Source: a virus
Lineage: Duplodnaviria; Caudoviricetes
Length of the DNA: 64,000 nucleotides
Strand: one strand, 5' to 3'
IMG/VR virus record: IMGVR_UViG_3300029305_003084
The translations under genes were made by a program, and so were the position numbers. The notes below the pieces were generated by a model, which made no database searches, was not told the origin of the DNA, and saw only the letters and a program-made list of their open reading frames with translations. Each line of letters begins with the position of its first letter. The first letter of the stretch is position 1. Positions 6,758 to 7,450 of the stretch are shown here, piece after piece.

Positions 6758-6821
6758 ATCATTCAATAACCTTGTTATATAACACAGATGATAGCGTGTT
6801 TTAACAAGGTTATTGAATGAT
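6758..6821 (+). promoter_or_regulatory. Long leader hairpin abutting TIGR array 1
   Basis: Perfect 20-bp inverted repeat ATCATTCAATAACCTTGTTA (6758-6777) / TAACAAGGTTATTGAATGAT (6802-6821), plus inner AACAC/GTGTT pairing. Confidence 0.7.
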
Positions 6822-7450
6822 TTAATCATTAATCGGAATAGTATCATCGATGCTGAATGAATCACATCACGCTATAGTATCACATTACGTAAATGAATCA
6901 TAGTCCTCGATAGTATCAACAGATTTAAATGAATCACCTGGTCTAATAGTATCACAAGACGTTAATGAATCATATTATGTTATAGTATCGTGTCCGAACA
7001 ATGAATCAGCACCAGTCATAGTACCATCGTGTGTGAATGAATCATATGGTCGCATAATAACATAATATATCAATGAATCACTCCGCTATTTAGTATCATG
7101 AAAAACAAATGAAACCATTAGCTGATAGTATCAACAGTATCACAACTAGCATAAATGAATCAACAGTAGGCATAGAATCGAATTCCATGAATGAATCAGT
7201 CACAGAAATAGTACCAATGAGCTGTAATAAATCAGACTGTATTATAGTATCAATAATGCATAATGAATCATATCTCCTGATAGTATCTTCGGGTAGCAAT
7301 GAATCAATCATCGCGATAGTATCAGGCAAACCCAATGAATCAGATGTCGTGATAGTAACAAATTGTTCCAATGAATCAAGCACAATAATAGTATCATGCT
7401 CACTCAATGAATCATATCCGCATATAGTATCACGGTTGTCGAATGTAATA
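6820..7450 (+). repeat. TIGR-like dual-repeat guide-RNA array 1: 17 units of AATGAATCA-N9-ATAGTATCA-N9 (36-nt period)
   Basis: R1 starts at 6820, 6856, 6892, 6928, 6964, 7000, 7036, 7072, 7108, 7154, 7190, 7226, 7262, 7298, 7334, 7370, 7406, with terminal 7442. Spacers are unique 9-mers; one unit is irregular (46 nt). Confidence 0.92.

Follow-up and report, generated by a model that had tools for sequence, protein, structure and literature searches.

How an array of two alternating 9-nt repeats is divided into guide RNAs, that is, which of the repeats is cut, at which position, and which spacers end up together in one RNA, is the question raised by TIGR array 1 (6820..7450, + strand), which lies in a 64,000-nt stretch of DNA (the window) from a virus of the Caudoviricetes (IMG/VR record IMGVR_UViG_3300029305_003084). 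Its 17 units each run from an edge repeat, AATGAATCA (R1), through spacer A to a loop repeat, ATAGTATCA (R2), and spacer B. The sequence-only reading of this DNA had proposed that R1 is the edge repeat, cut as AATG↓AATCA, that R2 forms the loop, and that the two spacers of a single unit pair up in one guide. The anatomy of the arrays, the family membership of the accompanying Tas protein, the assignment of edge and loop repeats, and the phasing of the units are established here. The best explanation for the locus as a whole, to which we assign a probability of roughly 0.85, is a phage dual-repeat TIGR-TasA system in which a cut at AAUG↓AAUCA would release 36-nt guides that pair the spacers of one unit, address DNA sites of the form A + revcomp(B), and probably mediate repression.

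The tas gene and the five arrays of the phage genome

The phage genome measures 247,146 bp in an IMG/VR record rated complete and carries five TIGR arrays together with a single tas gene (5159..6592, + strand), the sole copy in the 247 kb. The encoded protein has 477 residues, with a Nop/coiled-coil core at approximately residues 44-295 and a C-terminal extension spanning residues 296-477. It matches NCBIfam NF052498 (TIGR_Tas_endo) at 178 bits (cut-off 100) over residues 44-266, and in the PDB it finds TaTasR (9mty, E 2e-15) and SpTasH (E 1.5e-10), with no other meaningful structure match. Family searches gave no match to an HNH or RuvC nuclease domain, and just 43 residues precede the core; lacking a nuclease domain, the protein is thus of the TasA type. 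The 182-aa C-terminal extension returned no match in Pfam or family searches. The stop codon of tas lies 228 nt from the start of array 1 on the same + strand, and the interval holds a small ORF of 64 aa (6549..6743, + strand) that overlaps the tas 3' end and gave no match in family searches. Most of 80 related viral loci, retrieved with an alignment as query where the single Tas protein retrieved none, likewise have arrays with a period of 36 next to tas and on its strand, and the phage system belongs to the TIGR-TasA family described in 2025.

Array 1 comprises 16 units of the regular 36-nt length together with an aberrant one (7108-7153), with a TRF period of 36, and after its first R1 copy R2 and R1 alternate between 9-nt spacers. 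Directly 5' of it stands a 20-bp hairpin (6758..6821, + strand; dG -30 kcal/mol, z -8.45) whose 3' arm ends in AATGA, so that the first repeat of the array reads AATG-ATTT-AATCA. The array is followed by an intrinsic terminator (7451..7488, + strand), a hairpin with dG -20.1 kcal/mol and z -6.56 and then a U-run, which is common to array 1 and a convergent dNMP kinase gene. Array 1 is identical in two JGI metagenome contigs, and no strain variants distinguish the two metagenome copies compared.

Array 2 (62050-61719, - strand) has nine units and sits approximately 55 kb from tas, with a 64-aa ORF on one side and a dCMP deaminase gene on the other; it is followed by no terminator-like fold (z 0.03). 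Two of its units have an 11-nt spacer A, so that their RNAs would measure 38 nt. Three further arrays built of the same two repeats lie outside the window at genome C1:57809-58064, 85402-87060 and 226178-226660, with approximately 7, 45 and 13 units, respectively. In all, the R1 and R2 9-mers have 120 exact copies in the 247-kb genome, nearly all of them in the five clusters, where chance would yield about 3.8 per 9-mer on each strand, and an Rfam search covered the arrays with no family. Mean spacer GC over 13 arrays examined is 0.32, close to the 0.29 of the phage genome, so the high spacer GC of array 1 (0.47 for A, 0.43 for B; array 2: 0.21 and 0.41) is specific to some arrays.

The window contains several additional features. 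A group I intron is found at 14784-15020 (+; Rfam RF00028, 97.5 bits) and a cluster of seven tRNA genes at 50683-53029 (+), and a tandem repeat at 24332-24860, with a 171-bp period, 3.1 copies and 79% identity, is probably a coding repeat. Divergent from array 2, an ORF of at least 538 aa (62386-63999, +) encodes an N-terminal zinc finger, a region matching the PHROG endonuclease entry phrog_15137 (E 1e-68), and a weak permuted papain-like match at its C-terminal end.

Array ends and the predicted cut site

R1 is the edge repeat and R2 the loop repeat, as the ends of the arrays indicate. The sequence-only reading had noted that in both arrays of the window the first R1 copy is altered in its 5' half and keeps an AATCA-like 3' end, and that the last copy retains only the 5' AATG. 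The repeat coordinates and sequences on which it drew are correct, and the description fits array 1, whose first copy, ATTTAATCA (6820-6828), ends in AATCA. It does not fit the first copy of array 2, AATAAGCCA (62050-62042), in which the 3' half, AGCCA, differs from AATCA at two of five bases, while the 5' half, AATA, has hardly changed. The last copies, AATGTAATA in array 1 (7442-7450) and AATGTTTTT in array 2 (61722-61714), do keep AATG.

The same pattern extends to four sister phages (210-320 kb, Tas 44-50% identical, same two repeats). Across 12 arrays, five from this genome and seven from the sister phages, the first copy keeps AATCA or AGCCA, and in none is the preceding G5 retained: the five first copies here read ATTT-AATCA, ACAT-AATCA, CATA-AATCA, TTTA-AATCA and AATA-AGCCA, and the seven sister-phage starts take the form xxxx-AATCA. 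At the opposite end, AATG is kept in eight of ten true last copies (3/5 here and 5/5 in the sister phages) and the other two have AATA. The last copies of this genome are AATG-TAATA, AATG-TTTTT, AATA-AAAAA, AATA-TAAAA and, in the 85-kb array, a nearly full AATGAATTA, and among the five sister-phage ends, four copies resemble AATG-AAAAA and the fifth is a full AATGAATCA. In this genome, every array except array 2 (four of five) has a terminator after it. Furthermore, at least 15 more distant arrays have clean terminal half-copies, xxxxxAGCCA at the start and GAGCGxxxxx at the end, exclusively of the edge type; here clean half-copies alone were counted, and automatic end detection stopped early in many degenerate arrays.

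Published guides locate the predicted cut within this edge repeat. Faure et al. 2025 (PMC12045711) reported 36-nt guides whose processing divides the edge repeat at its centre, and Table S3 of that study lists the experimentally defined mature forms, AGCCA-N9-UGAAACCCA-N9-UGCG for TaTasR and AGCCA-N8-AAGACAACCA-N8-AAGCG for SpTasH. Ungapped alignment on the invariant G5, A6, C9 and A10 places the R1 cut at AATG↓AATCA, homologous to the G↓A cuts UGCG↓AGCCA of TaTasR and AAGCG↓AGCCA of SpTasH, with 5+9+9+9+4 = 36 nt in the product. The cut position within R1, the 36-nt product and the dependence of the cut on Tas are thus predictions by homology, and the position is the one that the sequence-only reading had proposed from the array ends. 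On this basis, guide 1.1 of array 1 (6824..6859, +) would start at the half-edge AATCA with no G before it, guide 1.2 (6860..6895, +) would be the 36-nt RNA AAUCA-CAUCACGCU-AUAGUAUCA-CAUUACGUA-AAUG, and the last guide, 1.17 (7410..7445, +), would finish on the half-edge AATG. As naked RNA, guide 1.2 has no stable fold, as expected. It is also important to note that SpTasH does not process a half-edge on the 5' side, which implies that the outer ends of the terminal units are probably made in another way, and we infer that they probably arise from transcription start or termination.

Two side observations concern these boundaries. A TATATT, TATAAT or TAATAAT element ends exactly 4 nt before the AATCA of the first half-edge at the 57.8-kb and 85.4-kb arrays of this genome and at the sister arrays G001a and G001b, often directly after a hairpin that terminates the gene upstream, and may represent a promoter from which transcription starts near the mature 5' end. 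In addition, split edge repeats of the form AATG-NTTW-AATCA, with four inserted bases exactly at the predicted cut site, occur at 6815-6828 in the window and at genome C1:85882-85895 and C1:86551-86564. They look like junctions at which an array end meets an array start, and the large array resembles a fusion of several sub-arrays that includes an internal duplication.

The alternative that deserves most attention, although we regard it as rather unlikely, accepts the phasing and questions the ends: the RNA would be cut by a host RNase, or 1-2 nt away from the predicted site, or its ends would be trimmed, given a Tas protein that lacks the catalytic tyrosine. SpTasH processes its precursor through Tyr289 and His296, a dyad located where the Nop domain ends on its C-terminal side. 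Of these two residues, the phage Tas keeps the histidine, His286, which is invariant among 120 homologues, and has Phe279 in place of the tyrosine (approximately 50 Phe and 44 Tyr among the same homologues), so that autonomous cutting by Tas is not assured. A conserved host RNase was indeed the original proposal of Faure et al. 2025 (PMC12045711), and the covariation described below would by itself confine the boundary only to the interval between positions 4 and 7. Against this stands the identical cut position in two distant systems, SpTasH and TaTasR, the latter with Trp aligned to the SpTasH tyrosine; moreover, the conserved part of the first copies begins exactly at A6 and G5 is never retained.

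Covariation between consecutive edge copies and the phasing of guides

Which spacers belong together is decided by a second body of evidence. In relatives, the edge repeat follows the pattern GA-NN-GA-NN-CA, in which position 3 complements position 8 and position 4 complements position 7, as exemplified by GAGCGAGCCA, GAATGAATCA, GAGTGAACCA, GATTGAAACA, GATCGAGACA and GAACGAGTCA. Many individual edge copies are chimeric, and the 3' half of one complements the 5' half of the next. We set positions 7-8 of each upstream copy against positions 4-3 of the copy downstream of it in 767 distinct units from 50 related arrays. Watson-Crick pairs account for 1449 of the end-pair cells (94%), next to 55 G-U, 16 A-C and 14 other combinations, whereas pairing within the same copy, taken for comparison, is Watson-Crick in only 494/760 cells. 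In units changed on both sides, both pairs are Watson-Crick in 61 of 70, or 68 of 70 when G-U is counted, and 58 variant units pair with their actual downstream partner as opposed to 26 +/- 3.6 when that partner is drawn at random from within the locus. Stepwise intermediates are preserved in this genome as AGTCA...AATG (wobble) and AGTCA...AACG (compensated). The first unit of array 2 provides a further example: the second R1 copy of that array is AGCG↓AATCA, so the deviant AGCCA at its start meets a matching AGCG, and the resulting guide 2.1 (62011..62046, - strand), in which AGCCA...AGCG replaces AAUCA...AAUG with both ends altered together, keeps both end pairs as G-C and C-G in place of A-U and U-A.

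That G-U outnumbers A-C suggests that the RNA of the array strand is under selection. Covariation between consecutive R1 copies further shows that a single RNA extends from one R1 to the following one, and consequently that the two spacers between them form one guide, AAUCA-N9-AUAGUAUCA-N9-AAUG. The pairing of spacers from the same unit, as put forward in the sequence-only reading, is borne out in this way, and the pairs it had named, CATCACGCT/CATTACGTA, ATCATCGCG/GGCAAACCC and TATCCGCAT/CGGTTGTCG, do co-occur in single units. GC content correlates neither between spacers A and B of a unit nor between B and the next A. TIGRFinder already sets the phase of arrays by edge complementarity, with complementary bases at positions 4 and 7, and unit-by-unit covariation is a refinement of that rule.

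A shifted phase, with R2 as the edge and each guide joining spacer B to spacer A of the next unit, is very improbable in this light. The two repeats are not very different: both end in UCA just before a spacer, as had been remarked earlier, both share A2 and G5, and hybrid copies, AATGTATCA, occur at loop positions. Their position 3 differs (A in R1, U in R2), which leaves the loop consensus ATAGTATCA without the box pair and with U opposite U where TaTasR and SpTasH have a closing pair, a point that counts against the reading favoured here. R2 lacks the edge signature of two covarying pairs that R1 possesses, including the complementary bases at positions 4 and 7 by which TIGRFinder recognizes the edge phase; the terminal half-copies are always of R1 type, with no half R2 at the start or end of any array examined, and the covariation joins consecutive R1 copies across one R2.

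Hardly credible, finally, is the notion that the arrays are not guide stores at all and represent decaying relics, DNA-level binding sites (iterons) or a coding repeat: array 1 does contain one aberrant unit and several degenerate repeat copies, and is traversed by ORFs at 7109-7459 (+) and 7096-7407 (-), where the JGI gene callers place a 116-aa gene, but neither ORF has a family match (the 116-aa one at 7109-7459, wholly inside the array, is probably spurious), the G-U over A-C bias of the end pairs and the strand-specific terminators speak for RNA, the sister phages keep the repeats yet share no guide pair, and the tas gene is intact.

Targets, function and relation to known systems

In light of these results and the published systems, we propose that the array would be transcribed on the strand shown and the precursor cut between G and A in every full R1 (AAUG↓AAUCA), releasing 36-nt guides that read 5'-AAUCA, spacer A (9 nt), AUAGUAUCA loop, spacer B (9 nt), AAUG-3', whose ends would pair with each other through an A-U and a U-A pair adjoining the conserved CA and G. 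[quoted passage not shown] This geometry, also part of the sequence-only reading, agrees with the layout of the synthetic TaTasR target, spacer A followed by revcomp(spacer B) (Faure et al. 2025 Table S3, PMC12045711). In the absence of a nuclease domain, the TasA-guide complex would most likely bind DNA and block transcription instead of cutting, and TasA has been found to repress transcription in reporter assays (Xu et al. 2026 preprint, 10.64898/2026.09.09.750476); by analogy with MbTasA, RNA-guided DNA binding and repression is thus the likely function. More tentatively, and with considerable doubt, the nuclease-free TasA and five dispersed arrays acting in trans may serve during phage infection as a programmable silencer for genes of the host or of rival elements, with the outer ends of terminal guides supplied by transcription start and termination; such an origin of the outer ends would account for the retention, at array ends, of no more than the half-repeat involved in the end pairs.

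Searches for natural targets compared A + revcomp(B) with the arrangements rcB+A and B/next-A and with shuffled pairings. Once its arrays had been masked, the phage's own genome offered the 25 guides from arrays 1 and 2 no better sites than ones with two mismatches, for AT-rich guides only and at chance level, and 80 guides from all five arrays gave no excess over shuffles in the four complete sister phages (1.09 Mb). Exact scans of IMG/VR with two array 1 guides returned two matches each, in unrelated contigs of 55-60% GC, and one guide returned three matches in JGI metagenomes, none from the phage's own samples, and five in GTDB genomes of unrelated taxa. Since A + revcomp(B) sites occur at chance level like the controls, the target test suggested in the earlier reading favours neither phasing. 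No guides are common to the sister phages, with six shared single 9-mers (at most one mismatch) against about four by chance, which indicates that spacer content turns over fast.

The closest counterparts are the dual-repeat TIGR-TasA systems. As in FpTIGR of Flavonifractor plautii and MbTasA (PMC12045711; 10.64898/2026.09.09.750476), the protein is a Nop-domain protein without a nuclease domain, and as in these systems, two short repeats alternate with 9-nt spacers at a 36-nt period, the array lies 3' of tas on the tas strand, and a half-edge marks both array ends before a terminator, the latter being missing after array 2 here. Differences from these systems include the AU-rich AAUGAAUCA and AUAGUAUCA, compared with a GAGCGAGCCA-like family consensus, the long C-terminal Tas extension of 182 aa, the presence of four additional arrays at distances of 16-150 kb from the single tas, and the phenylalanine in place of a processing tyrosine that FpTasA keeps. 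TaTIGR-TasR (PDB 9MTY) and SpTIGR-TasH (PDB 9W03) share with the phage system the invariant edge G↓A at the cut (predicted here), the end pairs 3-8 and 4-7, the CA box just before each spacer, and a guide, likewise predicted for the phage, composed of a 5-nt half-edge, spacer, loop, spacer and 4-5-nt half-edge. They differ in carrying RuvC or HNH nuclease domains and cutting DNA, in a box pair that is G-C as opposed to A-U here, and in a G-C loop closing pair where the consensus here has U opposite U.

More distantly, box C/D snoRNPs (Nop5 or Nop56/58) likewise combine a Nop-domain dimer with a two-guide RNA whose ends are paired; in contrast to them, the system described here features no k-turn, L7Ae or fibrillarin, its target would be DNA and not RNA, and its guides are arrayed and predicted to be cut from a precursor. 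CRISPR arrays resemble it in yielding unit guides from a repeat-spacer array and in complete spacer turnover between related genomes, whereas two alternating 9-nt repeats, split 9+9-nt spacers, and the lack of adaptation genes and of a known PAM set the phage arrays apart.

Since the edge and cut rule recovered from this DNA had already been published, our results confirm and refine known work and are not a new discovery. What they add is a set of exact predicted guides, 25 in the window and approximately 85 in the genome of a complete, uncultured 247-kb phage, which are the starting material needed for a search for natural targets, an open question according to Faure et al. 2025 (PMC12045711). 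Furthermore, the covariation between consecutive edge copies shows that selection acts on the end pairs of the guide in each individual unit, and it offers a route from sequence alone to the phasing of arrays and to bounds on their cut sites.
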